A stretch of 64,000 nt of DNA from an uncultured Candidatus Saccharibacteria bacterium. GTDB lineage: Bacteria; Patescibacteriota; UBA1384; JACPKC01. The first letter of the stretch is position 1, and every line of letters begins with the position of its first letter. The stretch is taken from assembly GCA_964423885.1 (NCBI GenBank), contig CAYRGD010000001.1, positions 160,660 through 224,659 of the forward strand. Direction: 5' to 3'. The translations under genes and the position numbers were made by a program. A model generated the notes under the pieces. That model saw nothing but the letters and a program-made list of their open reading frames with translations, was not told the DNA's origin and searched no databases. Positions 24,083 through 61,212 of the stretch are shown piece by piece.

Positions 24083-24169
24083 GCCGCGGTGGCGGAACTG
24101 GCAGACGCAACGGACTCAAAATCCGTCGACCGCAAGGTCATGTGGGTTCGACTCCCACCCGCGGCACCA
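24083..24169 (+). tRNA. tRNA-Leu (anticodon CAA), class II with long variable arm
   Basis: Acceptor stem GCCGCGG/CCGCGGC, anticodon stem ACGGA/UCCGU with loop CUCAAAA, 15-nt variable arm, T-arm GUGGG-UUCGACU-CCCAC, encoded CCA. 87 nt. Confidence 0.85.
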
Positions 24170-25193: not shown

Positions 25194-25269
25194 GGGCCCA
25201 TAGCTCAGTTGGTAGAGCGCGGCATTCGCATTGCCGAGGTCAGGAGTTCGAATCTCCTTGGGTCCACCA
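25194..25269 (+). tRNA. tRNA-Ala (anticodon CGC)
   Basis: Acceptor GGGCCCA with G3:U70 Ala identity pair, D-arm GCUC-AGUUGGUA-GAGC, anticodon loop UUCGCAU, T-arm AGGAG-UUCGAAU-CUCCU, encoded CCA. Confidence 0.85.
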
Positions 25270-25286
25270 AACACCACCAAACCCCC

Positions 25287-25667
25287 ATGGCAACGAACAA
25301 TCCAGATTTTCATACGGCCCTACAATCGCTGCTCGATGCAATATCGAACCGTGATTTTGAACGGTACAAGGCGCACATTACGAAAAACCACACGCTGTAT
25401 ACGATTGTCCAAAACGGACAGGCGTTTACGACGTCGCAGGAATTACTTGCTATGCACGAGGCATGGTTCAAGGATCCGCACTGGATATGGGAGGGCTCTG
25501 TTATTCGCACCGATGTGGGTCAGGATATGGCAATGGCCATCATCAAGTACGAGTACCGAGCGAAAAAGGAAGACGCACCGTCGAGCACGTGGCTGACCTA
25601 TGTGTTCCGGCTCGAAGATGGGGAGTGGCGTCTCATACATGACCACAATACCGCGCTGAATGCGTAG
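25287..25667 (+). CDS. NTF2-like / SnoaL-like small protein (DUF4440-like)
   Basis: Start trimmed to the ATG after the tRNA. Motifs FERYKAHITKNHTLYTI and WLTYVFRLEDGEWRLIHDH. Visibly lower GC than its flanks. Confidence 0.5.
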   Translation: MATNNPDFHTALQSLLDAISNRDFERYKAHITKNHTLYTIVQNGQAFTTSQELLAMHEAWFKDPHWIWEGSVIRTDVGQDMAMAIIKYEYRAKKEDAPSSTWLTYVFRLEDGEWRLIHDHNTALNA

Positions 25668-26884: not shown

Positions 26885-28090
26885 ATGGCATCGATTCGGA
26901 CACTTCAAGCCCGAAGTATCCTTGATTCCCGGGGTAACCAGACGCTCGAAGTCGACCTGACGCTGGACGACGGCACGGTCGGCCGTGCATCGGTCCCGGC
27001 CGGCGCATCAACCGGCATCCACGAAGCCGTCAGGATCGACGACATGGCCCGGGCGGTTACGAATGCGCAGGCGCTCGGCGAGCGGTTGGCAGGCCAGGAT
27101 CCGGCCCAGCAGGAACGGATCGACCTGGCGCTGCTCGAAGCCGACGGCACCGACGACAAGAGTAAGCTTGGCGGCAACGTGCTGCTCGCGGTATCGATCG
27201 CCTCGTGCGTCGCCGCGGCCGCATCGCTGAAGCGGCCGCTCTACGAGCACATCGCGGCCGTCGCCGACCAAAAGACTCCGCCAGGACTGCCCACGCCGAT
27301 GTTCAATATCATCAACGGCGGCAAGCATTCCGACAACAAGCTTGAGATCCAAGAATTCATGGTCGTGCCGGCCAACGACCGCCGGCCGTTCCGCGACAAG
27401 CTTACGATCGGCCGTGAGCTGTACCAGGCGCTCAAGGCGATGCTCCAGGATATGGGCCAGACGACAGCGGTCGGCGACGAGGGCGGGTTTGCGCCCCGGT
27501 TGACGTCGAACATCGAGGCGGTCGAGTTGCTCGTCCGTGTCATCGAAAACTCGCCGTACAAGCCGCGGACCGACGTCTCGATCGGGATCGACGTGGCAGC
27601 CAGTTCGATTCCCGACCTGGCGGCGGTCACCTACCCGCTCGACCCGATCTCGTTCTACGAGAAACTCGTCAACGACTATCCGGTTTCGATCATCGAGGAT
27701 CCGCTGACTGAAGACGACTGGCAGGGCTGGGCGGCGCTCAACGCGCGGATCGGCAGCCGCGTGGTACTCGTCGGCGACGACCTGTATACGACGAACCCGA
27801 AGCGGCTCAAAGAGGGTATCGACAAGCGGGCGACGAACGCGGTGCTTATCAAGCCCGACCAGATTGGCACGCTGACCGAAACGTTCCAGACGATGCGGCT
27901 GGCCCACGAGGCGGGCTTCACCCGTGTCGTATCCCACCGTTCGGGCGAGACGGAATCGAGCTTCCTGGCCGACCTGGCCGTCGGTACCGGCGCCGAGTTC
28001 TTGAAAGACGGCGCCCCGGCCCGCGGCGAACGTGTCGCGAAGTACAACCAATTATTGCGGATCGCCGAGCAGCTCGAACGGGAGGGGTGA
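26885..28090 (+). CDS. eno: Enolase
   Basis: GGAGG RBS; motifs SRGNQTLEVDL, SGETED-like SGETESSF, KPDQIGTLTE. Confidence 0.9.
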   Translation: MASIRTLQARSILDSRGNQTLEVDLTLDDGTVGRASVPAGASTGIHEAVRIDDMARAVTNAQALGERLAGQDPAQQERIDLALLEADGTDDKSKLGGNVLLAVSIASCVAAAASLKRPLYEHIAAVADQKTPPGLPTPMFNIINGGKHSDNKLEIQEFMVVPANDRRPFRDKLTIGRELYQALKAMLQDMGQTTAVGDEGGFAPRLTSNIEAVELLVRVIENSPYKPRTDVSIGIDVAASSIPDLAAVTYPLDPISFYEKLVNDYPVSIIEDPLTEDDWQGWAALNARIGSRVVLVGDDLYTTNPKRLKEGIDKRATNAVLIKPDQIGTLTETFQTMRLAHEAGFTRVVSHRSGETESSFLADLAVGTGAEFLKDGAPARGERVAKYNQLLRIAEQLEREG

Positions 28091-28094
28091 CAGT

Positions 28095-29675
28095 ATGACA
28101 CGGCAGCGGTTGATCCTGATGGTCTTGGACGGGTTCGGCCTATCCCCCGCTACCCGGGGCAATGCCACCTACATGGCCAAAACGCCCAATCTCGACCGTC
28201 TGATCGCCGAATATCCCTATACGGCCCTTACCGCCCACGGCGCCGAGGTCGGCCTGTCGTGGGGCGAGATGGGTAATTCCGAGGTCGGCCACATGAACCT
28301 GGGCGCGGGGCGTGTCATGCTGCAGGAGGCGACGCGGATCAGCAACGCGATTACGACCGGCACGTTCGCTGACAACGAAGCGCTCCGTGCAGCCTGCGAG
28401 ACAGCCAAACGGACGGGTGCGACGCTCCATCTTATCGGCATCGTCTCGCCTGGTGGCGTCCATGGCCACATCGACCACTTGGTCGCCAGTATCGAACTGG
28501 CGCACCGCGAAGGGGTGGGAGCAGTCTCGCTCCACCTCATCGCCGACGGCCGGGACGCGACGCCGAAGTCATTCGAGAAGTTTTTTCCGAAGCTCGATGC
28601 GGTCGCCCGGCAGGCCGGTGCCAAGTACGCGACCCTGATGGGGCGCTACTACGCCATGGACCGCGACCGCCGGTGGGACCGCGTCCAGGCGGCGTACCAG
28701 GCGATGGTCGTGGGTCAGGGGCAGACCGCCACGACAGTTCCCGAGGCGCTCGCCGCCGCGTACGCACGGAACGAAACCGACGAGTTCATTACACCCACGG
28801 TGATCGATCCGGGCAATGCGGCGTTACGGATCAAGAACGGCGACGTCGTGGTCTTTACCAACTACCGCCCCGACCGCGCCCGACAGTTGTCGCTTGCGCT
28901 CGCCGGTAAGGAATTCAACGGGTTCACCCGTACGCCGCTCGATCTGACCTTCGTCACCTTCAGCGAGTACGGCGTCGAGCTGCGCAACAACACCGTCGCT
29001 TTTCCCGAAGAACCGATCCAGAACCAGCTGGCTCAGGTGTTATCGGATGCCAACCTGCGGCAATTGCACCTGGCCGAGACCGAAAAGTACGCCCACGTGA
29101 CGTACTTCTTCAACGGCGGCCAGGAACAGGCGTTCCCGCTCGAAAAGCGGATGCTCGTCGAATCGCCCAAGGTGCCGACGTACGACCAGGCGCCGGCGAT
29201 GGCAGCCCGCGAGATCACGACGACCTTGCTCGAGGCCTACCAGGCCGACGGGTTCGATGTGGCGATCGTCAATTACGCGAACGGTGACATGGTCGGCCAC
29301 ACGGGCAATCTGCAGGCGACCATCGAAGGGATCGAGACGATCGACGAGGCGTTCGGTGCGATTGCGGCTGCGGTCGAGCACGCCGGCGACATTCTGCTCA
29401 TTACCGCCGACCATGGCAATGCCGAACAGAAGATTCATCCGGACACCGGCGAGATCGACAAGGAACACACCGCGAACCCGGTTCCCTTGCTACTCGTCGA
29501 CCCTAAGTACCGGCACCGGCCGCAAAGCGGCGACGTGAAACTGGCGTTCATGTCGACCCAAGCTATCGGGATCCTGGCCGACGTCGCACCGACGATCCTC
29601 GAACTGCTCCACGTGCCCCAACCGAAGGACATGACCGGCCAAAGCTTGCTCCCCGTCTTAAAGCGCGCCCGGTAA
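28095..29675 (+). CDS. gpmI: 2,3-bisphosphoglycerate-independent phosphoglycerate mutase
   Basis: iPGM motifs LMVLDGFG, catalytic Ser in GNSEVGHMNLGAGR, metal site TADHGNAEQ. Confidence 0.9.
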   Translation: MTRQRLILMVLDGFGLSPATRGNATYMAKTPNLDRLIAEYPYTALTAHGAEVGLSWGEMGNSEVGHMNLGAGRVMLQEATRISNAITTGTFADNEALRAACETAKRTGATLHLIGIVSPGGVHGHIDHLVASIELAHREGVGAVSLHLIADGRDATPKSFEKFFPKLDAVARQAGAKYATLMGRYYAMDRDRRWDRVQAAYQAMVVGQGQTATTVPEALAAAYARNETDEFITPTVIDPGNAALRIKNGDVVVFTNYRPDRARQLSLALAGKEFNGFTRTPLDLTFVTFSEYGVELRNNTVAFPEEPIQNQLAQVLSDANLRQLHLAETEKYAHVTYFFNGGQEQAFPLEKRMLVESPKVPTYDQAPAMAAREITTTLLEAYQADGFDVAIVNYANGDMVGHTGNLQATIEGIETIDEAFGAIAAAVEHAGDILLITADHGNAEQKIHPDTGEIDKEHTANPVPLLLVDPKYRHRPQSGDVKLAFMSTQAIGILADVAPTILELLHVPQPKDMTGQSLLPVLKRAR

Positions 29676-29679
29676 CCCG

Positions 29680-31314
29680 ATGCCGGGCGTCACCGACATC
29701 ACAACCCAGCCGAAACCGGTCGTCCTCGCCATCCTCGACGGTTGGGGACTGTTGCCGTCGTGGCAACGTAACGCGATTGTCTCGACGCGGACCCCGACCT
29801 TCGACTACCTCTGGAAACACTATCCGCACGCCGTCCTGCAGTCGTTCAAGATGATCGGCAACCGCGACGGCCAGATCCGCTCGAGCGAGATCGGCCACGC
29901 CTCGATCGGTTCAGGCCGGATCGTCAAGGATGACCTGACCGAGCTGAATGCGGTGATCGAAAACGGCCGGTTTTACGGCAACGAGGTCTTGGGCGAGGCG
30001 ATGGCGCACGCGGTTGAGACGGGTAAGGCGGTGCATCTCATCGGGATCATGTCCGAGGGAGGCATCCAGGGATCGCTCGGCCATGCGGTCGCGCTCGTCA
30101 AGCTTGCGAAGCAGCGCGGCGTCAAGGAGCTCTGGCTCCATCCGATCACCGACGGGCTCGACGTCCCCGACCGGTCGGCGCCCGGGTACTTGCAAGCGTT
30201 GCAAGCGGCCTTGGAGGTGGAAGGTATCGGCATCGTCGCTACCGTACTCGGTCGCGCCTCGGCTATGAACCAAGACGGCGACTGGCGTGCTACCGCCCTT
30301 GCCTACCGCGCCTTGCTCTACGGCGACGGCCCGACGGCATCGTCGGCGCGCGAGGCGCTCGAAGCTGGATACGCGCGGGATGCGACCGACGCGACACTCC
30401 TGCCGACCGTCATCGCTCCTCCGGGCGAATCCCGGACGTTCGTGAAGGGAAGGATCCGGCCCGGCGACGTGGTCGTTGCCTGGAACTTCCGCCACGACGG
30501 CATGGAACAGCTCGTGCGCGCGATGCTCGACCCGTCCGCGTTGCGCCGCTACGCGGTGAGTCGCCAACTTCCGCTCGCGAAAACGTCCCGGTTCGTCACG
30601 CTCACCGACTACCGGATCACGCTTCCGGGCCTTGCCGCCGCGTTCCCGGCCGCGGAGCTTGGCAACACCCTCGCCGACCTGCTCGAACGGCACAATAAGA
30701 CCCAACTCCGGGTCGCTGAAACGGCCAAGTACCCGCACATCACGTACTTCTTCAACGGCGGACGGGCGGCGCCATACCCGCACGAGACCCGGATCATCAT
30801 TCCGTCGCGCAAGAGCCCGCCCGACCGTGCGCCGGAACTCGCGACCGGCGAGGTAGTCCGCCAGCTGGAACGACAGATCGACGCCAAGGCCGCCGATTTC
30901 ATGCTCGCCAATCTGCCGAACCTGGACGTGGTTGCCAAGACCGGCGACATGGCTGCCACGGCCAAGGCGGTCCAGGTAGTCGACGAGGCGCTCCGCCGGA
31001 TCGCGAACGCGACGCTGGCCGTAGGCGGCGTCCTGCTTGTCACCGCCGACCACGGCAACGCCGAGCAGATGCGCAGCCGTCCGACGGCGAGCCAGCGCCA
31101 TACGATCAGCCCCGTCCCGTTCCTGCTTATCGGCGAGGCGTACAAACGCACGCACGCGCCCGAGCGGGTCGATACCGAAGACGTGGTCGCCATGATGGTC
31201 CGGTCCGACCACACGCTTGCCGACGTCGCACCGACGATCCTCGAGCTGTTCGGCATCGCCAAGCCGAGCGACATGACCGGCAGCTCGCTGCTTGGCGAGC
31301 TGTCCACAAGATGA
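29680..31314 (+). CDS. Second, divergent iPGM-family paralogue (tandem to gpmI)
   Basis: LAILDGWG, RSSEIGHASIGSGR, TADHGNAEQ; only ~30% identical to upstream gpmI by eye. Starts 5 nt after the gpmI stop. Confidence 0.75.
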   Translation: MPGVTDITTQPKPVVLAILDGWGLLPSWQRNAIVSTRTPTFDYLWKHYPHAVLQSFKMIGNRDGQIRSSEIGHASIGSGRIVKDDLTELNAVIENGRFYGNEVLGEAMAHAVETGKAVHLIGIMSEGGIQGSLGHAVALVKLAKQRGVKELWLHPITDGLDVPDRSAPGYLQALQAALEVEGIGIVATVLGRASAMNQDGDWRATALAYRALLYGDGPTASSAREALEAGYARDATDATLLPTVIAPPGESRTFVKGRIRPGDVVVAWNFRHDGMEQLVRAMLDPSALRRYAVSRQLPLAKTSRFVTLTDYRITLPGLAAAFPAAELGNTLADLLERHNKTQLRVAETAKYPHITYFFNGGRAAPYPHETRIIIPSRKSPPDRAPELATGEVVRQLERQIDAKAADFMLANLPNLDVVAKTGDMAATAKAVQVVDEALRRIANATLAVGGVLLVTADHGNAEQMRSRPTASQRHTISPVPFLLIGEAYKRTHAPERVDTEDVVAMMVRSDHTLADVAPTILELFGIAKPSDMTGSSLLGELSTR

Positions 31315-31412: not shown

Positions 31413-32468
31413 ATGCACATGAATGCCCTGCGGCGGGTCAGGCAGGCCGCAGCAAGAGGGACAGGACTCGCACTCGTCGGCCTAATGGGGAGCGTGTCCG
31501 TTCTTGCTCTGCCCTTGTCCGCCACCGCAGCGGAGCTGACAGCCGAAAGCACCTCGCTGTCTGATCCGACCATCAGCCATGCGGCCACGACCTACACGGT
31601 CACGCAGAGTAGCGTGTCGCTGAGCGCGATCAAGTGTCTCCAAGTCGTGTTCAGCGTGAACGCCGACGGCACTGGCGGCGTTCCCACCGGCATGAGCACG
31701 ACCTCGGCCACGTTCAATGGCAGCTCGACCTACGTGCCGACCCCGGCATCCTGGTCGGTCGACGCGACCACGAACGGCACGGTCAACATTACCTTCGCGA
31801 CCGGCGAAACGCCGGCCTCCGCGTCGGGACGGACGATCGTGTTGGGCAGTATCACGAACGGCTCCACGGCCAATACCACCTACTACACCACCGTGCAGAC
31901 GTTCAATAACACCGACTGCTCGACCTCGCCGGTCGACGATGGTGGCCAGTCCACGTACGTGTTCGTGGACGGTGTGGTGGTGACTGCGACGGTCAACCCG
32001 ACGCTCACCTTTACGGTCGATTCCACCACTTGTAACCTGGGTACACTGACGTCTTCGAGTACCGGTAACTGCAGCCATACGATAACTGCGGCATCGAACG
32101 CGACGAGCGGCTACGTGATCTCGTACATCGCGAGTCCGACGCTCACGAGCGGCGGTAACACGATTACGGCCAACGGTGCGTCCGCGGTCGCCAACGCGAC
32201 CAACACCGAACAGTTCGGTCTCAACTTGGTGGCGAATAGCTCGCCTTCGGTCGGGGCTAACCCGTCGGGCGGTACCGGCGCTGCAGCGGCCAACTACAAT
32301 ACGGCGAACAGCTTCGCGTTCACGACTGCGGGCGCGACCGTCGCGACCACAGCTGGTCCGAGCGCGCTGACGACATATACGGTATCGTACATCGCGAACA
32401 TCGACGCGGTTACCGAAGCCGGCCTGTACACGAAGACGCAGACGTATACCATCACAGCAACGTACTAA
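31413..32468 (+). CDS. Secreted beta-rich surface protein, WxL-like C-terminal region (paralogue A)
   Basis: AAGGAGGG RBS, signal peptide ...ALPLSATAAE, Thr/Ser/Asn-rich beta segments. C-terminus EQFGLNLV...TYTVSYIANIDAVTEAGLYTKTQTYTITATY. Confidence 0.55.
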   Translation: MHMNALRRVRQAAARGTGLALVGLMGSVSVLALPLSATAAELTAESTSLSDPTISHAATTYTVTQSSVSLSAIKCLQVVFSVNADGTGGVPTGMSTTSATFNGSSTYVPTPASWSVDATTNGTVNITFATGETPASASGRTIVLGSITNGSTANTTYYTTVQTFNNTDCSTSPVDDGGQSTYVFVDGVVVTATVNPTLTFTVDSTTCNLGTLTSSSTGNCSHTITAASNATSGYVISYIASPTLTSGGNTITANGASAVANATNTEQFGLNLVANSSPSVGANPSGGTGAAAANYNTANSFAFTTAGATVATTAGPSALTTYTVSYIANIDAVTEAGLYTKTQTYTITATY

Positions 32469-33586: not shown

Positions 33587-34612
33587 ATGATGGCGCAGGT
33601 GTTCAATCGGTTACTTGTCGTAGTTTGTGTGGCACTGACGGCCTTGCAGTTCTTCCCGTTGCCGCTTGAGGCCGCCGAACTGACTGCCGAGAGCGTCGCA
33701 CTCACTGATCCGACCGTCGGCCAAGCGGGTGTCACCTACGATATCGTGCTGGGAGGGCAATCTACGGCGGCGATCCGATGCATCACCGTTCGGTTCACCG
33801 GGACAATCGGCACGAACGACCCGCCTGCCGGCATGGATATTGGTAGCGCGGTTTTCGATGCGGCCAGCACGATCGTGCCTACGCCTGCGGCTTGGTCGGC
33901 AGTCGGTGTGAACGGTACCGGTATCGTAATGATTACGAATGCGCTCGGTGAAAATCCGGCCGGCGGTGCAAACCGGACGCTTATCCTGAACGGTATCACG
34001 AACGGCAGCGCAGGCAATACTACCTACTACGCCGAGGTAAATACGTTCGCCGATGCAGGGTGCACCGCCCTTGTCGATACCGACGGCCAGGCAGCCTTCG
34101 TGTTCACCTCCGGGGTACTGGTGACATCCACGGTAAACGACGTGCTCAACTTCTCGCTCACACCGGGGTGTTCTGCTGGTGAGCTCAATCAGGCAGCCGC
34201 CAAGACCTGTACGCTCGAGATGCATGCCTCGACTAATCATCCGACCGGGTACAGCGTGTCGTACTCGGCAGTGGAGACTATGCACGAAGCGTCCCACTTG
34301 GACACGATCGCTGCGGTAGGCGCTACCGCCCAGACGAGTGCTCCCGGCACGAAGCAGTTCGGGTTCAACCTGGTTGGTAACATGGTGCCGACAACAGGTG
34401 CCGACCCGGTCGGCGGTACCGGCGCTGCGTTCGGCCAGTACGCCATCGCGGACAAGTTTGCGTTCACGACCGCCGGCGGCACGATCGCCAGCGCTGCTTC
34501 TTCGAGTAGCGATACGCAGTATACGGTGTCGTACCTGGTCAACGTCGAGCCGAACATGGTGTCCGGTTCCTACGTAGCACAGCAGACGTACACGATCGTG
34601 GTGAATCCATGA
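33587..34612 (+). CDS. Secreted beta-rich surface protein, WxL-like C-terminal region (paralogue B)
   Basis: Colinear with paralogue A (AAELTAES...; TPAAWS; NTTYYAEVNTF; KQFGFNLV). C-terminus QYTVSYLVNVEPNMVSGSYVAQQTYTIVVNP. Confidence 0.55.
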   Translation: MMAQVFNRLLVVVCVALTALQFFPLPLEAAELTAESVALTDPTVGQAGVTYDIVLGGQSTAAIRCITVRFTGTIGTNDPPAGMDIGSAVFDAASTIVPTPAAWSAVGVNGTGIVMITNALGENPAGGANRTLILNGITNGSAGNTTYYAEVNTFADAGCTALVDTDGQAAFVFTSGVLVTSTVNDVLNFSLTPGCSAGELNQAAAKTCTLEMHASTNHPTGYSVSYSAVETMHEASHLDTIAAVGATAQTSAPGTKQFGFNLVGNMVPTTGADPVGGTGAAFGQYAIADKFAFTTAGGTIASAASSSSDTQYTVSYLVNVEPNMVSGSYVAQQTYTIVVNP

Positions 34613-35235: not shown

Positions 35236-36590
35236 TGACTGCTAGCCCTGAGGATGCCCAAGCGGCGGTCGAACGGCTGCGCCAGGGCGGCTACGAGGCC
35301 TACTGGGTCGGTGGCTGCGTCCGGGATATCCTGCTCGGCCGAACGCCGAACGATTACGACGTGGTGACGGATGCGGTGCCTGACGACGTCGCCGCCTTGT
35401 TCGAACGGCACCATCCGGTCGGCAAGGCCTACGGCGTCATGCTGGTCGGCATCGGTTCCAGTCAGATCGAGGTCGCCACGTACCGGGCGGAACAGGGCTA
35501 CGCCGACCGCCGCCGGCCCGATACTGTCCGTTGGACTGACGCGAAGGGCGACGTGTTTCGCCGCGATTTCACCGTGAACGGCCTGCTCTACGATCCTGTC
35601 AGTCGCCACGTGGTGGATTACGTGGACGGCCAACGCGACCTCATGATCAAGATTATCCGCTGCATCGGCGATCCGGACGAACGCATCCGCGAGGATCCGC
35701 TCCGAATTTTGCGAGCGGTCCGATTGAAGAATGCCTTGGGTTTCCAATACGACCAGGCAACGTACCGGGCACTTGTCCGGCATGCGGCCGAGGTGTCGCA
35801 CGTGGCTTGGGAGCGGATCGGCGCGGAACTGACGCTCATGCTCGGCCATCCTTCCCGCGCCCAGGCGATCCGAGACCTTGACCGACTCGGCCTACTCCCA
35901 CTGCTCTTGCCCGAACTCGAAGCGACCAAGGGCGTGCCGCAGCCGATCGATTTCCACGCCGAAGGCGACGTGTTCGACCACTTGCTCCGTTCGCTCGCGT
36001 CGGTACCGGCGGATTCGCCAGCCTTTCTGGCGTGGGCTGTCTTGCTTCATGATATTGCCAAGCCCGCGACGCTTGCCTATCCCCCGTCGGCGAGCGCAGG
36101 CAGGATTACCACCTACGGCCATGCCAAGCAGTCAGCTGCGGTCGCGGAACGGATCCTGCGCCGGTTCCGACGACCTGCATCCGAGGTGCGGACGGTCGGT
36201 TGGCTCATTGACCGTCATATGAGCCTGCCGGCGCTCGAGCGGTTGCGTCCGCATAAACGAGAAGCGTTCTTGAGTGATCCGCGCTTTCCATGGTTGCTTG
36301 AGCTCCACCATGCCGACGCCGCCGGTGCAATACCGGTCGACCTGTCGTTCTATGCGAAGAACTTACAGCACTACCAGGAATGGAAACGGCTCCGCGCTAC
36401 CGTCGGATCATTCAAGTCGCTCGTCAACGGCCACGATTTGGTCGAAGCCGGTATTCCGTCGGGGCCGCATATGGGGGAGATCCTGCGTTTGGTACGTGAC
36501 GCAGAATTGACGCACCGCATAAACTCGAAGGCCGAGGCGATCGCGTACGCCAAAGAGCGGTATGCCAGTTACGGCAATGCGAACGCGTAA
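35235..36590 (+). CDS. cca: CCA-adding enzyme / tRNA nucleotidyltransferase (PolyA_pol head plus HD domain)
   Basis: GGCVRDILLGRTPNDYDVVTD nucleotidyltransferase motif, RDFTVNGL, HD domain LLHDIAKP. Confidence 0.8.
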   Translation: MTASPEDAQAAVERLRQGGYEAYWVGGCVRDILLGRTPNDYDVVTDAVPDDVAALFERHHPVGKAYGVMLVGIGSSQIEVATYRAEQGYADRRRPDTVRWTDAKGDVFRRDFTVNGLLYDPVSRHVVDYVDGQRDLMIKIIRCIGDPDERIREDPLRILRAVRLKNALGFQYDQATYRALVRHAAEVSHVAWERIGAELTLMLGHPSRAQAIRDLDRLGLLPLLLPELEATKGVPQPIDFHAEGDVFDHLLRSLASVPADSPAFLAWAVLLHDIAKPATLAYPPSASAGRITTYGHAKQSAAVAERILRRFRRPASEVRTVGWLIDRHMSLPALERLRPHKREAFLSDPRFPWLLELHHADAAGAIPVDLSFYAKNLQHYQEWKRLRATVGSFKSLVNGHDLVEAGIPSGPHMGEILRLVRDAELTHRINSKAEAIAYAKERYASYGNANA

Positions 36591-37249
36591 ACCGACACCG
36601 TGGTCGAGTACATGCCCGGCTGTTGGCTGAACGGCACGTTGAGCTTATAGGTGACAGTAGTGTCGTCCGGTGAGCTGATCGACTGCCCTAGAATGTGGTA
36701 GGTCGTCGGTGATGCGGTAGGAATCGCCGCGAACGCATTACCGTTGTCCCACTTGGGATCGACGTTCGTGCCAGCGCTAACACTGAAACCCAGGCCGGTG
36801 CCGCTGTATGTGGTCGGGCCGTCGATGTCGCTGCCATAGTCGCCGATCGTCGTTACCGTATCGGTATGCGTCATAGGCGCCGCCTTCGAAATTGCCAGGC
36901 TGTACCCAGCCGACGAATCCGTGCTGACCGTACTGGTTGTTGTGCCGCTGACAGGGCTTCCCGGTACAAGGTTACCAAGATCGACCGTCGGCGAGTTAAG
37001 GGTCAAGGTTACCACCGATCCCGTGACTGCCGGAAAACCGGTATCCAGATAGTAGTTGTCGCTGTTCGCAACGCCGACGATGGGCGCACCCGACGAACGG
37101 ATACCGAAGTTGTCCGAGCTTATGCTGTTGCCAAAGCTATGGATGCCGAACTGCGGGATCTTGTAGCTGTCCGATTCGAGCGCCAAGGCGCTGGCCGGAA
37201 TCACGATACCCAGAGTGAGCGTGGCGATGGCGATGATCCGTTTGTCCAT
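36569..37249 (-). CDS. Secreted beta-rich surface protein, WxL-like C-terminal region (paralogue C, short)
   Basis: Signal peptide MDKRIIAIATLTLGIVIPASALA. C-terminus TVTYKLNVPFSQQPGMYSTTVSVYAFALP aligns with the C-termini of paralogues A and B. 3' end overlaps cca convergently by 22 nt. Confidence 0.5.
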   Translation of the reverse strand: MDKRIIAIATLTLGIVIPASALALESDSYKIPQFGIHSFGNSISSDNFGIRSSGAPIVGVANSDNYYLDTGFPAVTGSVVTLTLNSPTVDLGNLVPGSPVSGTTTSTVSTDSSAGYSLAISKAAPMTHTDTVTTIGDYGSDIDGPTTYSGTGLGFSVSAGTNVDPKWDNGNAFAAIPTASPTTYHILGQSISSPDDTTVTYKLNVPFSQQPGMYSTTVSVYAFALP

Positions 37250-53254: not shown

Positions 53255-53658
53255 GCCTGCTCCTTCGCGGTTTCGGGCGCGGCTGCGCCATGGATCGTAA
53301 GCCGGCGCATCAGTTCCCTGCGCAGCCGGTTTTTCGGCAACATGTTGTAGACCGCCATCTCGATCACCTGCTCCGGCTTGGTGGCCATGAGGTCTTTTAG
53401 GCTGACTTCGCGCATACTACCCAAGTATCCGCTATGCCGGCGGTATACCTTTTGGTCGAGCTTCTTGCCGGTGACCGCGACATTCGCGGCGTTGATGACA
53501 ACGACCCGGTCGCCCTCGATCCGGTGCGGCGCGAACGTCGGTTTGTCTTTCCCACGGAGCGCCGTGGCGATTTCAGTCGCGATACGGCCGAGGACCTTGC
53601 CGCCTGCGTCGATCGTCCGGACGGTGTCGGTGGCGGGGAGATAGGTTTTCTTCTTCAT
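53251..53658 (-). CDS. rplM: 50S ribosomal protein L13
   Basis: GKVLGRIATEIATALRGK, NMLPKNRL. Confidence 0.9.
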   Translation of the reverse strand: MKKKTYLPATDTVRTIDAGGKVLGRIATEIATALRGKDKPTFAPHRIEGDRVVVINAANVAVTGKKLDQKVYRRHSGYLGSMREVSLKDLMATKPEQVIEMAVYNMLPKNRLRRELMRRLTIHGAAAPETAKEQA

Positions 53659-54122
53659 GCTGCTGCCTTTGCCGGTGCGGCCTTCTTGGGAGCCGGCGCT
53701 GTGCTTCCGGCGGTACGGTCTACAGCCTTGGTCTTCGCCGGTTTGTCGTCATCGGTTTTCGGCGGGTCGACGAAGGTGATCATCGAGGTTTCGGCCGCGT
53801 CGCCCTTGCGCATCCCGATCTTATAGAGACGGGTGTAGCCGCCGGCGCGGTCGCCGACACGCGACACGACGTTGTCGATCAAGATGCGTACCGCCGACGC
53901 ATTGCGGAGTTCCGCGACGAGCAGCCGGTGCAGCGCCAGTTTCGCGGCGCCGTTCGCACGGGCTGCTTTGCGTCCGGCGGTGATCCATCGTTCGACGATC
54001 GGACGGAGCGCTTTGGCTTTCGTCGTCGTGGTAGTCACATGGCCGTGCTCGATGAGCGAGATGCCCATCGTGGTGAGCATATGACGTTCTTTGTCGCGGA
54101 TGCGGCGGAACAGCAGTGCCAT
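53655..54122 (-). CDS. rplQ: 50S ribosomal protein L17
   Basis: HRKAML-like segment, GGYTRLYKIGMRKGD, Ala/Lys-rich tail. Confidence 0.85.
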   Translation of the reverse strand: MALLFRRIRDKERHMLTTMGISLIEHGHVTTTTTKAKALRPIVERWITAGRKAARANGAAKLALHRLLVAELRNASAVRILIDNVVSRVGDRAGGYTRLYKIGMRKGDAAETSMITFVDPPKTDDDKPAKTKAVDRTAGSTAPAPKKAAPAKAAA

Positions 54123-54125
54123 GGT

Positions 54126-54911
54126 TTACTCCGCCTGCTCCGGCTCGTCGGCAACGGCCTTCTTCGAAGTGCGCTTCTTGGCAGCCTTCTTCGGTTCCCC
54201 GTCCGTGGTCTGCGCGGCTGCCTGGGCCGCATCGCGAACGATACCGAAGTGCTCGACCAAGATCTGCGACGCCTTGCCCACGGCCTCGGCCGGCGAGACG
54301 GTGCCGTCAGTGGTGAGTTCGAGTGTCAGCTTGTCGTAGTCGGTCTGGCCGCCGACGCGGGTGTGCTCGACATCATAGTGGACCCGCTTGATCGGACTGA
54401 AGATCGAGTCGACCGCGATCGTGCCGAGCGGCAGCTTTTCGTTACCCTTGCGTTCGGTCGGAACGTAGCCGCGGCCGCGTTCGACCGTTACTTCCATCGA
54501 CAGTTTGCCGTTCTTGTCGAGCGTCGCCAGGTGATGGTCGGGATCGGCGATCGTGACATCGGCGTTCGGCGCGAAGTCGGCAGCGGTTACGGCGCCCGGC
54601 CCCTTCTTGTCGAGGCGGATTACCACCGACTCGTCGGATTCGGAGCGGACGCGGAGCGATTTGAGGTTCAGGATAAGCTCGACAATGTCTTCTTTCATAC
54701 CCTTGAGCGTCGTGAACTCATGGTCGGCGCCGTTGATCTTCACGTACGAGACGGCCGCGCCTTCGAGCGAGGTCAGCAGGACGCGGCGCAGGGAATGGCC
54801 GAGCGTCATGCCGTAGCCGGGAGCCAACGGCTCGATCACGAAGGTCGAGACCCGTTCAGAGCTCGGCTGTTCGGTGATCGTCATCCGTTCGGTGTCAGGC
54901 AGGATATACAT
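54126..54911 (-). CDS. rpoA: DNA-directed RNA polymerase alpha subunit, N-terminal domain only (no alpha-CTD)
   Basis: Start trimmed to ATG 54911 with a consensus AAGGAGCGTT-ATG RBS. NTD motifs EPLAPGYGMTLGHSLRRVLL. The protein ends right after the NTD (ILVEHFGIV) with a 35-aa Lys/Ala-rich tail. 261 aa. Confidence 0.85.
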   Translation of the reverse strand: MYILPDTERMTITEQPSSERVSTFVIEPLAPGYGMTLGHSLRRVLLTSLEGAAVSYVKINGADHEFTTLKGMKEDIVELILNLKSLRVRSESDESVVIRLDKKGPGAVTAADFAPNADVTIADPDHHLATLDKNGKLSMEVTVERGRGYVPTERKGNEKLPLGTIAVDSIFSPIKRVHYDVEHTRVGGQTDYDKLTLELTTDGTVSPAEAVGKASQILVEHFGIVRDAAQAAAQTTDGEPKKAAKKRTSKKAVADEPEQAE

Positions 54912-54924
54912 AACGCTCCTTGGC

Positions 54925-55530
54925 TTATCGCGAGTAGAACTCAATGATCAGCTGCTCTTCGAGGTCGGTGCCGATCTCGTCGCGGCTCGGAACCGACAGG
55001 ATCTCGCCCTTGAGGGCGGTCTTGCTTTCAGGCCGCAGCCAGACCGGCATGTCGTTGGTGCTCGGCTTGCGGGCGATCTTGGTCAACTCGATCACCTGAT
55101 TGGGCGCCATCTGCATCGACGGGATCGTGGCTTTCTTGCCATCTACCTTGACCAAGCCGTGCGTGACGTACTGGCGAGCCTGGCGGCGGGTATCAGCGAA
55201 GCCGAGCCGGTACACGACATTGTCGAGCCGGAGCTCAAGCAGCTGGAGCAGGCGCTCGCCGCTGTTGCCGGAGCTGCGCTGGGCCAAACTGTAGTAACGG
55301 CGGAACTGCTTTTCGAGCATGCCGTAGATCGCTTTCGCCTTCTGCTTTTCGAGCAGCTGACGGCCATATTCCGAACGTTTGCCCGGGCGGCGGCTCTGGC
55401 CATGTTGTCCCGGCGCGTAGCCGCGCTTCGTGAACGAGCTCTTCGGCCCAAGGCTGCGCTCCCCCTTCAGGAAGAGGTTGACGCCAGCGCGTCGGCTCAA
55501 TCGTTCGGTCGGTCCTGTGTAGCGTGCCAT
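54925..55530 (-). CDS. rpsD: 30S ribosomal protein S4
   Basis: MARYTGPTERLSRRAGVNLFLKGER; S4 RNA-binding domain. Confidence 0.9.
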   Translation of the reverse strand: MARYTGPTERLSRRAGVNLFLKGERSLGPKSSFTKRGYAPGQHGQSRRPGKRSEYGRQLLEKQKAKAIYGMLEKQFRRYYSLAQRSSGNSGERLLQLLELRLDNVVYRLGFADTRRQARQYVTHGLVKVDGKKATIPSMQMAPNQVIELTKIARKPSTNDMPVWLRPESKTALKGEILSVPSRDEIGTDLEEQLIIEFYSR

Positions 55531-56316: not shown

Positions 56317-56430
56317 TTATCCTTGTACCTGCTTATGGCGCGGGTTTTCGCAGATGATCCGTACCTTGCGGGCACGCAGGATCACCTTGCACTTCTCGCA
56401 CCGTTTCCGAACTGAAGCAGATACTTTCAT
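56317..56430 (-). CDS. rpmJ: 50S ribosomal protein L36
   Basis: Not in ORF track. [37 protein letters not shown], Zn-ribbon C-x2-C...C...H; sits between infA and rpsM as usual. Confidence 0.8.
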
Positions 56431-60314: not shown

Positions 60315-60730
60315 CGCTGGACGTGTGCCTGGTAGACCGCTTTCGTGAATGTAAGGCCGCGGAACTTGAGTTTCTTGGTGAGCGTGCCGCTGCCGACGAT
60401 CTTGGCCGCCTTGGCGTCGCTGCCGACCAATCCCTTGGCGCGGAGCGTTTTGAGCGTCACGACATTGCCGTCTTGAAACGCATGGTCGAGCTGCGTCAGT
60501 GTAACGGTCGCCGTCAATGGACGGTGCGGGAACCGGCGGCCGCGCAGCTTCGGCAGACGCATGAAGAGCTTGGTCTGGCCGCCTTCGAAACCGGCGGGAA
60601 TGTTGAAGCCTGACCGCGCCTTCTGGCCTTTGGTGCCACGGCCGGCGCTCTTGCCTTGTCCGGCCGAGATGCCTCGTCCGAGCCGGCGGGCGCGCTTCAC
60701 CGTGCGCGGGAGCGTATGGAGCGAGCTCAT
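60311..60730 (-). CDS. rplO: 50S ribosomal protein L15
   Basis: [22 protein letters not shown] glycine-rich N-terminus typical of L15. Confidence 0.9.
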
Positions 60731-61212
60731 GCGCGTGCCTTTCTGGCCGGGCGTTCTTTCATGGTTGCCAGCGCCTGGATCGTGGCGCGGACGTTGTTCG
60801 TCTTATTGTTTGAGCCGATCATCTTGGACAGGATATTTTTGATGCCTGCCAGTTCGATCACTGCCCGGATCGGGCCGCCTGCGATCACCGAGGTGCCGGC
60901 CGCGGCCGGTTTCAGAAAGATCTGCGCGCTGCCCAAGCGGACGGTGGTTTCGTGCGGGATCGTGTCGTTCACGATCGGTACGGTCACGAGCTTCTTCTTG
61001 GCTGCCTGGCCGGCTTTCTTGATCGCCTGTTGGACGTCGCCGGCTTTGCCGAGGCCCATACCGACCTTGCCGTTCCGATTGCCGATCACGACCAAGGCTC
61101 GGAAACGCATGCGCTTGCCGCCCTTGACGGTGCGCGAGACGCGCGAGAGCTCGACGAGCCGCTCTTCGAACTCGCTTTTCGGTTTGTCGTGGGTATCGTG
61201 ATGATCAGCCAT
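60727..61212 (-). CDS. rpsE: 30S ribosomal protein S5
   Basis: [32 protein letters not shown]. Stop overlaps the rplO start, so there is no room for rpmD (L30). Confidence 0.9.

Follow-up and report, generated by a model that had tools for sequence, protein, structure and literature searches.

The α subunit of RNA polymerase (RNAP) encoded in a 64,000-nucleotide stretch of DNA from an uncultured Candidatus Saccharibacteria bacterium (contig CAYRGD010000001.1, positions 160,660 to 224,659 of the forward strand; hereafter the window) lacks the C-terminal domain (CTD). Its gene, rpoA, lies at positions 54126–54911 on the reverse strand, comprises 261 codons and a TAA stop codon (54126–54128), and is a complete rpoA without the helix-hairpin-helix module of the α-CTD, a claim that an earlier note had made from the sequence alone and on which Pfam, NCBIfam, alignments to PDB structures, an AlphaFold2 (AF2) model and a hidden Markov model (HMM) of the CTD now agree. 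Most likely the gene is intact and of the expressed type, its product being an α that is CTD-less by nature, and we consider it very probable that this is a true, lineage-wide loss of the CTD, with the N-terminal domain (NTD) alone making up a functional α. The α-CTD reads UP elements at strong promoters, e.g. those of rRNA genes, and is where class I activators (e.g. CRP) and factors such as Spx dock. With the domain absent here, this polymerase would be able neither to recognise UP elements nor to be recruited by class I activators via the α-CTD.

The NTD comprises residues 1–225 (54237–54911, reverse strand), ends with the segment ILVEHFGIV and contains both the dimerisation and the insert domain. 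Pfam recognises PF01193 (E = 1.9e-20) and PF01000 (E = 3e-35), which together constitute the α-NTD, and the α subunits of solved polymerases align with the window protein through their residues 4 to ~230 only, e.g. those of M. smegmatis and M. tuberculosis over residues 4–228 with an E value of ~5e-68, the identity within the NTD being 46–53%. The AF2 model, calculated with 54 homologues, has a mean predicted local distance difference test (pLDDT) score of 91, exceeds 90 in the NTD and places the final NTD helix at residues 207 to 236; Foldseek superposes it on α-NTD chains from M. tuberculosis, Thermus and others with a root mean square deviation of ~1.7 Å over ~218 columns. Pfam, PDB alignments and Foldseek thus confirm that the protein follows the α of solved polymerases through ILVEHFGIV, in keeping with the alignment to the E. 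coli NTD given in the earlier note. Moreover, R42 and R43 of the LRR motif are invariant in the homologue alignment (A1) and align with R44 and R45 of E. coli α, judged by the PDB alignment and the E. coli sequence, R45 being the arginine critical for assembly. The protein also exceeds the curated cutoffs of two NCBIfam equivalog models, with 290.2 bits for NF003519 (cutoff 277) and 267.8 bits for TIGR02027 (cutoff 227.8), the match to the rpoA models being limited to positions 1 to ~250 of 298–340.

No trace of a CTD was found beyond this point. The Pfam scan gave no match of the window RpoA to PF03118 at E ≤ 1. A home-made α-CTD HMM, for which the C-terminal regions of 68 full-length RpoA sequences were used, detected the domain in 73 of 80 fetched genome loci, among them four loci from the candidate phyla radiation (CPR) at ~1e-13, and returned nothing at E ≤ 10 from the six reading frames of the 64-kb window with its filters off. 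The reading frame itself is well defined at both ends. Translation starts at the ATG at 54909–54911, which is preceded at a distance of 4 nt by the ribosome-binding site AAGGAG (54916–54921, reverse strand), located 3' of the rpsD stop codon. A TTG at 54944 was considered as alternative start and rejected, as it overlaps rpsD and as homologues of 250–262 aa beginning with MY(I/T)LP favour the ATG; both the length of 261 aa and the start set by AAGGAG, as given earlier, are therefore upheld by the sequence and by homologue lengths. At the other end only 3 nt separate the rpoA stop codon from the start of rplQ, which leaves no room for a CTD in a shifted frame, and a GGAG Shine-Dalgarno-like site of rplQ (54129–54132, reverse strand) is embedded in the final two rpoA codons (GCG GAG), with 6 nt between it and the ATG of rplQ. 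A segment of 14,313 bp that spans rpoA, its stop codon and rplQ is 100% identical to the Logan assembly of run SRR12712864, and a protein identical to the window RpoA is present in public collections (P0001).

The short α is no peculiarity of one genome and no error; it is lineage-wide across several CPR lineages. Two protein databases searches were made, one with the window RpoA and one with a CTD-less RpoA labelled Paceibacteria as query, and the best 120 matches of each were listed. In the first search 119 of the best 120 matches lack PF03118 (248–317 aa, 49–100% identity), the single exception being an actinobacterial Gaiella sequence, and in the second search 119 of the best 120 are CTD-less (228–336 aa). 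Pooled, 238 of the 240 listed matches (228–336 aa) have no CTD, and the CTD HMM found none of the matches of either search significant except the Gaiella control. Among the named homologues of the window protein the closest (72–86% identity) bear the label Candidatus Berkelbacteria or Patescibacteria group, and the named matches of the second search that of Magasanikbacteria, Paceibacteria or Patescibacteria group, lineage names that rest on few named matches and locus titles.

The 80 genome loci, i.e. the listed matches of a contig scan with alignment A1, sample relatives of 42–56% identity with no close Berkelbacteria among them. The CTD is present in all 69 non-CPR loci. Seven of the 11 CPR-type loci (L003, L026, L033, L048, L062, L063 and L069) are without it, as the HMM found no CTD within 6 kb of rpoA, and the canonical domain is kept in the Saccharibacteria-labelled loci L001, L013 and L045 and in L004, which is labelled only Patescibacteria group. 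In a neighbour-joining tree of the NTD, computed from ~200 columns without support values, CTD-less sequences fall into at least three CPR groups with CTD-bearing sequences of Saccharibacteria type among them; the tree serves for grouping and gives no number of losses, and the distribution suggests that the CTD was lost more than once among CPR. Locus L048 (contig CAZKQL010000049.1) carries the label 'uncultured Gammaproteobacteria', but the CTD-less RpoA of 251 aa that it encodes is placed with Magasanikbacteria by the NTD tree, so that mislabelling or contamination of the bin is probable. A search of representatives clustered at 50% identity yielded genuine CTD-less RpoA mixed with many frameshifted metagenomic predictions and thus provides examples, not a reliable count. 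Public databases have contained CTD-less α subunits for years under the plain annotation alpha subunit (e.g. P0238).

In place of the linker and the CTD the window RpoA carries a C-terminal tail (residues 226–261; 54129–54236, reverse strand). The sequence following ILVEHFGIV, RDAAQAAAQTTDGEPKKAAKKRTSKKAVADEPEQAE, contains 10 Ala, 6 Lys, 2 Arg, 3 Asp and 4 Glu, so that the Lys/Ala/Glu-rich composition described in the earlier note holds, whereas the length, given there as 35 aa, is 36 aa. Residues ~237–261 are coil in the AF2 model with pLDDT values of 44–63, and this region includes a Lys-rich basic cluster from K241 to K251, KKAAKKRTSKK (54159–54191, reverse strand). Among 122 homologues of the window RpoA the tail has a median length of 40 aa, Lys and Arg account for 27% of the tail vs 11% of the NTD, and at least six Lys/Arg residues occur within some 12-aa segment of the tail in 116 of the 122 proteins. 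The basic cluster lies toward the C-terminus of the tail (median relative position 0.72), and the spacer that precedes it is on average acidic. In the twelve closest sequences tail identity is only 32–55%, vs 76–90% in the NTD, and the spacer, a KKxxKK(R)xxKK cluster and an acidic tip ending in Glu are nevertheless retained. The terminal Glu kept in these close relatives (ending in xE) may be explained by the embedded GGAG of rplQ. Moreover, the motif KP[AK]?[KR][KR] is found in 51 of the 122 tails vs 7.1 ± 2.6 in composition-preserving shuffles, and in 25 of the 81 tails of a second set vs 0.9 ± 0.9. The window has a GC content of 62% and its predicted proteins contain 3.8% Lys and 7.3% Arg, Lys being enriched about fivefold in the tail; since the window proteome prefers Arg over Lys, the Lys cluster is not a by-product of GC content.

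Other CPR lineages end their CTD-less RpoA in different ways. Many ABY1-type proteins consist of the bare NTD (228–240 aa) with only 4–15 residues past the last NTD helix (P0130, P0133, P0137, P0150, P0172 and others), and other ABY1-type proteins have purely acidic tails. In the group of P0147, P0151, P0152 and P0170 a long acidic spacer is followed by EEKPKKRGRKKK, and KPKKRGRKKK occurs as C-terminal cluster in other CPR lineages. The RpoA of L069 (5956–6840 of the locus, forward strand), P0352 and P0376 carry a canonical AT-hook core, KRGRPKK, at the C-terminus, for which Pfam AT_hook scores 11.9 bits in L069 and 13.1 bits in P0352, below the cutoff of 17.4, P0376 being unlisted. Finally, in the RpoA of L026 (5638–6582 of the locus, forward strand) and in P0124–P0129, which are labelled Paceibacteria or Magasanikbacteria, the NTD is followed by an acidic disordered linker of ~30 aa and two helix-extended-helix units (SWLKDELIEYAE...TKKDILDKIE); their matches to SAP_new25 and Rho_N are sub-threshold (24–26 bits, cutoff 26.3), and AlphaFold2 models them with pLDDT values of 73–79. 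A flexible linker plus a small, putatively nucleic-acid-binding module recurs in CTD-less α subunits, a design logic shared with the α-CTD, and this suggests that the CTD may have been replaced repeatedly by small tethered modules of this kind.

Based on these findings we propose the following scheme. The C-terminal helix-hairpin-helix domain would have been lost in evolution in the clade of this genome and in several other CPR lineages. The NTD of 225–236 residues would retain all that is needed for dimerisation and for nucleating assembly with β and β', and the core enzyme would form normally. Initiation would then rely on contacts between σ and the promoter, together with any activators that touch σ or the α-NTD. 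The simplified promoter architecture and the reduced regulatory repertoire that the earlier note derived from the missing domain would be plausible consequences. The two disordered tails of the α dimer may reach the DNA upstream of the −35 element, where their Lys clusters could provide a non-specific or weakly AT-biased electrostatic anchor, i.e. a minimal stand-in for the non-specific upstream contacts of the α-CTD, which, according to Ross and Gourse, reportedly contacts upstream DNA in a sequence-independent manner. We favour DNA as target of the tail because the basic cluster is kept despite the fast evolution of the tail and because AT-hook and SAP-like modules are found at the same position elsewhere; that the window tail itself contacts DNA is nonetheless a tentative proposal, to which we give somewhat less than an even chance. 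More doubtful is the generalisation that large parts of the CPR discarded the α-CTD and repeatedly substituted minimal tethered DNA-binding elements (Lys-rich clusters such as KPKKRGRKKK, AT-hooks, tandem SAP-like units) on disordered acidic linkers for upstream anchoring of RNAP. A partial look at AT-rich, UP-like tracts in the window, made with no mapped promoters at hand, yielded only 40-bp segments of 33–35% GC.

Several points weigh against this scheme. The shuffles used for the tail motif ignore the relatedness of the sequences, so that its significance is overstated. The net charge of the window tail is only about +1, the tail has no R-G-R-P core, and Pfam finds no AT_hook (PF02178) match in it. 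As there are relatives with a bare NTD or an acidic tail, a DNA-contacting tail is no general requirement and the Lys cluster is possibly dispensable. The search for a separately encoded CTD was confined to the 64-kb window and the 6-kb flanks of seven other CTD-less loci. Last, studies in model bacteria suggest that the α-CTD is required for viability (PMC4495994), so its loss must be compensated or tolerated.

Of the other explanations the one that survives best is that the CTD was lost and nothing replaces it, the tail being either what remains of the interdomain linker, under no selection, or low-complexity sequence of a generic kind, and its end being constrained only by the ribosome-binding site of rplQ. 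The many tail-less or acidic-tailed relatives, the low net charge, the GGAG in the last two codons and a tail that evolves much faster than the NTD would all fit such an origin, as would the Lys-rich ends of L17 and other ribosomal proteins of the window. A neutral tail would, however, hardly be expected to keep a dense Lys/Arg segment in 116 of 122 clade members at a tail identity of 32–55%, nor to show the KP-KK/KR motif in two sets whose NTDs are only ~45–50% identical, and it accounts neither for the enrichment of Lys in a genome that prefers Arg nor for the recognisable DNA-binding motifs at the same position in other lineages. We therefore regard neutrality as somewhat unlikely, albeit as an explanation to be taken seriously.

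Alternatively, the basic cluster might be a short linear motif with a target other than promoter DNA: it might bind nascent RNA or an acidic partner, e.g. part of σ or of a Nus factor, or take part in coupling of ribosome and RNAP. An acidic spacer that leads into a basic patch, in many cases with an acidic tip, is typical of disordered interaction motifs, and in E. coli the α-CTD binds NusA (PMC13374769), so that a protein contact that was lost might be replaced in this way. As no partner has been identified and as the AT-hook and SAP-like modules of sister lineages point to DNA instead, we consider such a role improbable.

Two further explanations dispute that the CTD is gone. According to the first, rpoA is a split gene and the α-CTD is encoded elsewhere, either stand-alone or fused to a polymerase-associated protein, and acts in trans. 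Split polymerase subunits do exist, e.g. β' in cyanobacteria, and of this genome the search reached the 64 kb of the window, on a source contig of 292,834 bp. Within its reach, however, none of the reading frames of the window or of the regions flanking rpoA in the seven CTD-less loci contains a CTD-like sequence; the stand-alone CTD gene that the earlier note had named as a possible refutation was thus not encountered, a result that holds for these regions. Moreover, the CTD works tethered through the α linker and a free CTD would have no obvious route to recruit the polymerase, and CTD-less C-termini that carry different modules of their own (basic cluster, AT-hook, SAP-like) fit replacement better, all of which renders a split gene very unlikely. 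According to the second, which we regard as practically negligible, an otherwise normal rpoA is cut short by a frameshift, a premature stop or a mis-assembly, or is a pseudogene. Errors of this type do occur in metagenome-assembled genomes, and several database representatives whose C-termini are Arg-rich nonsense are evident frameshift artefacts, but the position of rplQ and of its Shine-Dalgarno site within the last rpoA codons, the lack of a CTD remnant in any frame, the identical second assembly, the same architecture in 238 of the 240 listed matches from many samples and the conserved basic cluster of the tail argue against it, so that the frameshift or assembly error that had been named in advance as fatal to the claim was looked for with negative outcome.

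The gene lies in the canonical rpsM-rpsK-rpsD-rpoA-rplQ operon context. The gene order around rpoA is rpmJ, rpsM, rpsK, rpsD, rpoA, rplQ, rplM, rpsI, with infA also upstream. Directly adjoining rpoA upstream is rpsD (54925–55530, reverse strand; stop codon 54925–54927), which encodes ribosomal protein S4 with PF00163 and PF01479, and downstream follows rplQ (53655–54122, reverse strand; ATG at 54120–54122), which encodes ribosomal protein L17 (PF01196, E = 1.1e-24) and also appears in the gene list of an independent contig. L17 has a Lys/Ala/Pro-rich C-terminal extension (...KPAKTKAVDRTAGSTAPAPKKAAPAKAAA; 53655–53770, reverse strand), the Pfam L17 domain covering residues 15–118 of 155. As this extension and the ends of several other ribosomal proteins of the window show, basic low-complexity ends are not unique to RpoA in this genome. 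The gene rpmJ, encoding L36 (37 aa; 56317–56430, reverse strand), lies between infA and rpsM and is missed by an open reading frame (ORF) cutoff of 40 aa. Further upstream the gene of S5 (60727–61212) shares 4 nt with that of L15 (60311–60730), both on the reverse strand, and a gene for L30 is missing between the two. The lack of L30 was reportedly described as a hallmark of CPR by Brown et al. in 2015, and the direct contact of S5 and L15 without it supports the assignment of the genome to the CPR, within which the bacterium is Berkelbacteria-like.

Some features of the window are unrelated to rpoA. ARAGORN and Rfam found only two RNA genes, tRNA-Leu(CAA) at 24083–24169 and tRNA-Ala(CGC) at 25194–25269, both on the forward strand; the latter extends over the beginning of an ORF that was called mechanically (25209–25667), the start of which is therefore probably wrong. 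Two adjacent ORFs of ~545 aa (28032–29675 and 29680–31314, forward strand) have nearly alike C-termini (…DVAPTILELL…P.DMTG.SLL…), are apparently tandem paralogues and look, by sequence, like cofactor-independent phosphoglycerate mutase. Three ORFs (31413–32468 and 33587–34612 on the forward strand, 36569–37249 on the reverse strand) share similar C-termini (…YTVSY…N…G.Y…T.TYTI…) and may be paralogues of one family, secreted or located at the cell surface; a Pfam scan of the first of them, 31413–32468, gave no confident domain. A large ORF from 37256 to ~39400 on the reverse strand, which is absent from the gene map based on GC content at third codon positions, has a C-terminal segment that seems to resemble the intramolecular-chaperone domain of phage tail-fibre and endosialidase proteins.

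If the loss is as widespread as the searches suggest, a large fraction of bacterial diversity would initiate transcription without the regulatory hub that the α-CTD constitutes, and CTD-less organisms would be expected to be without UP elements and CTD-dependent class I recruitment. The repeated substitution by tethered elements, if true, would amount to a convergent solution to upstream promoter contact that has not been described before, and nature would thereby have shown by experiment that a major branch of Bacteria can do without activation of the class I type. The variety of C-termini, i.e. basic cluster, AT-hook, SAP-like or none, offers a testable series for the minimal upstream contact of a bacterial polymerase. 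On the practical side, completeness and annotation checks that expect PF03118 will mis-score CTD-less genomes. According to a comparative study from 2025 the α-CTD is ubiquitous in all Bacteria (PMC12531629), a review of α-like subunits from 2026 does not mention a natural CTD-less bacterial α (PMC13374769), and the sole CPR species in a cross-phylum promoter study from 2025 is Nanosynbacter lyticus, a member of the Saccharibacteria (PMC12641261). We found no published description of a CTD-less bacterial α in the full-text literature, the coverage of which is incomplete, so that this is no proof of novelty.

The closest functional precedent comes from engineered polymerases. The α-NTD is the domain needed for dimerisation and for the start of RNAP assembly (PMC4495994). 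In B. subtilis a CTD-truncated α replaces the intact subunit, and the polymerase assembles, binds DNA and forms elongation complexes (PMC4495994). The cells grew more slowly, with a doubling time of 1.9 h instead of 1.0 h, and kept doing so over at least 6 h, and transcription fell for ribosomal, carbon-source and transition-state genes (PMC4495994). In E. coli truncated α did not complement temperature-sensitive α-NTD mutants (PMC4495994). E. coli α 1–235 and B. subtilis RpoA-del have the same NTD-only domain content as the window RpoA; these truncations are artificial, whereas the truncation described here is natural, conserved in whole lineages and accompanied by a conserved basic cluster.

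Compared with canonical RpoA (329 aa in E. coli; TIGR02027/PRK05182), the window protein is orthologous and has the same NTD domains, the R44/R45 pair and the same operon position, but where the canonical subunit has a linker and a CTD of ~80 aa (PF03118) it has its disordered Lys/Ala/Glu tail of 36 aa. Archaeal Rpo3 (RpoD) and eukaryotic Rpb3/AC40 are, like the window RpoA, two-domain assembly platforms without an α-CTD (PMC13374769). Nevertheless, the window RpoA is not a member of the archaeal RpoD/Rpo3 family (NF001988, 21.2 bits vs a cutoff of 153; NF011548, 13.4 vs 194) and, unlike archaeal Rpo3 and eukaryotic Rpb3, it belongs to the homodimeric type found in Bacteria, lacks any Fe-S or zinc module and implies no partner of the RpoL/Rpb11 kind. 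Among its own relatives, some CTD-less CPR α subunits carry AT-hook (PF02178) or SAP/HeH modules on the linker; the cluster KKAAKKRTSKK of the window RpoA occupies the equivalent position and differs from an AT-hook in having neither the G-R-P core nor a Pfam match, and for all of these elements DNA binding is putative. The window protein may be regarded as an orthologue of canonical RpoA that lacks one feature by which the family is defined, the CTD, and that shares its domain content with the engineered truncations and the position of its basic cluster with the putative DNA-binding modules of other CPR lineages.

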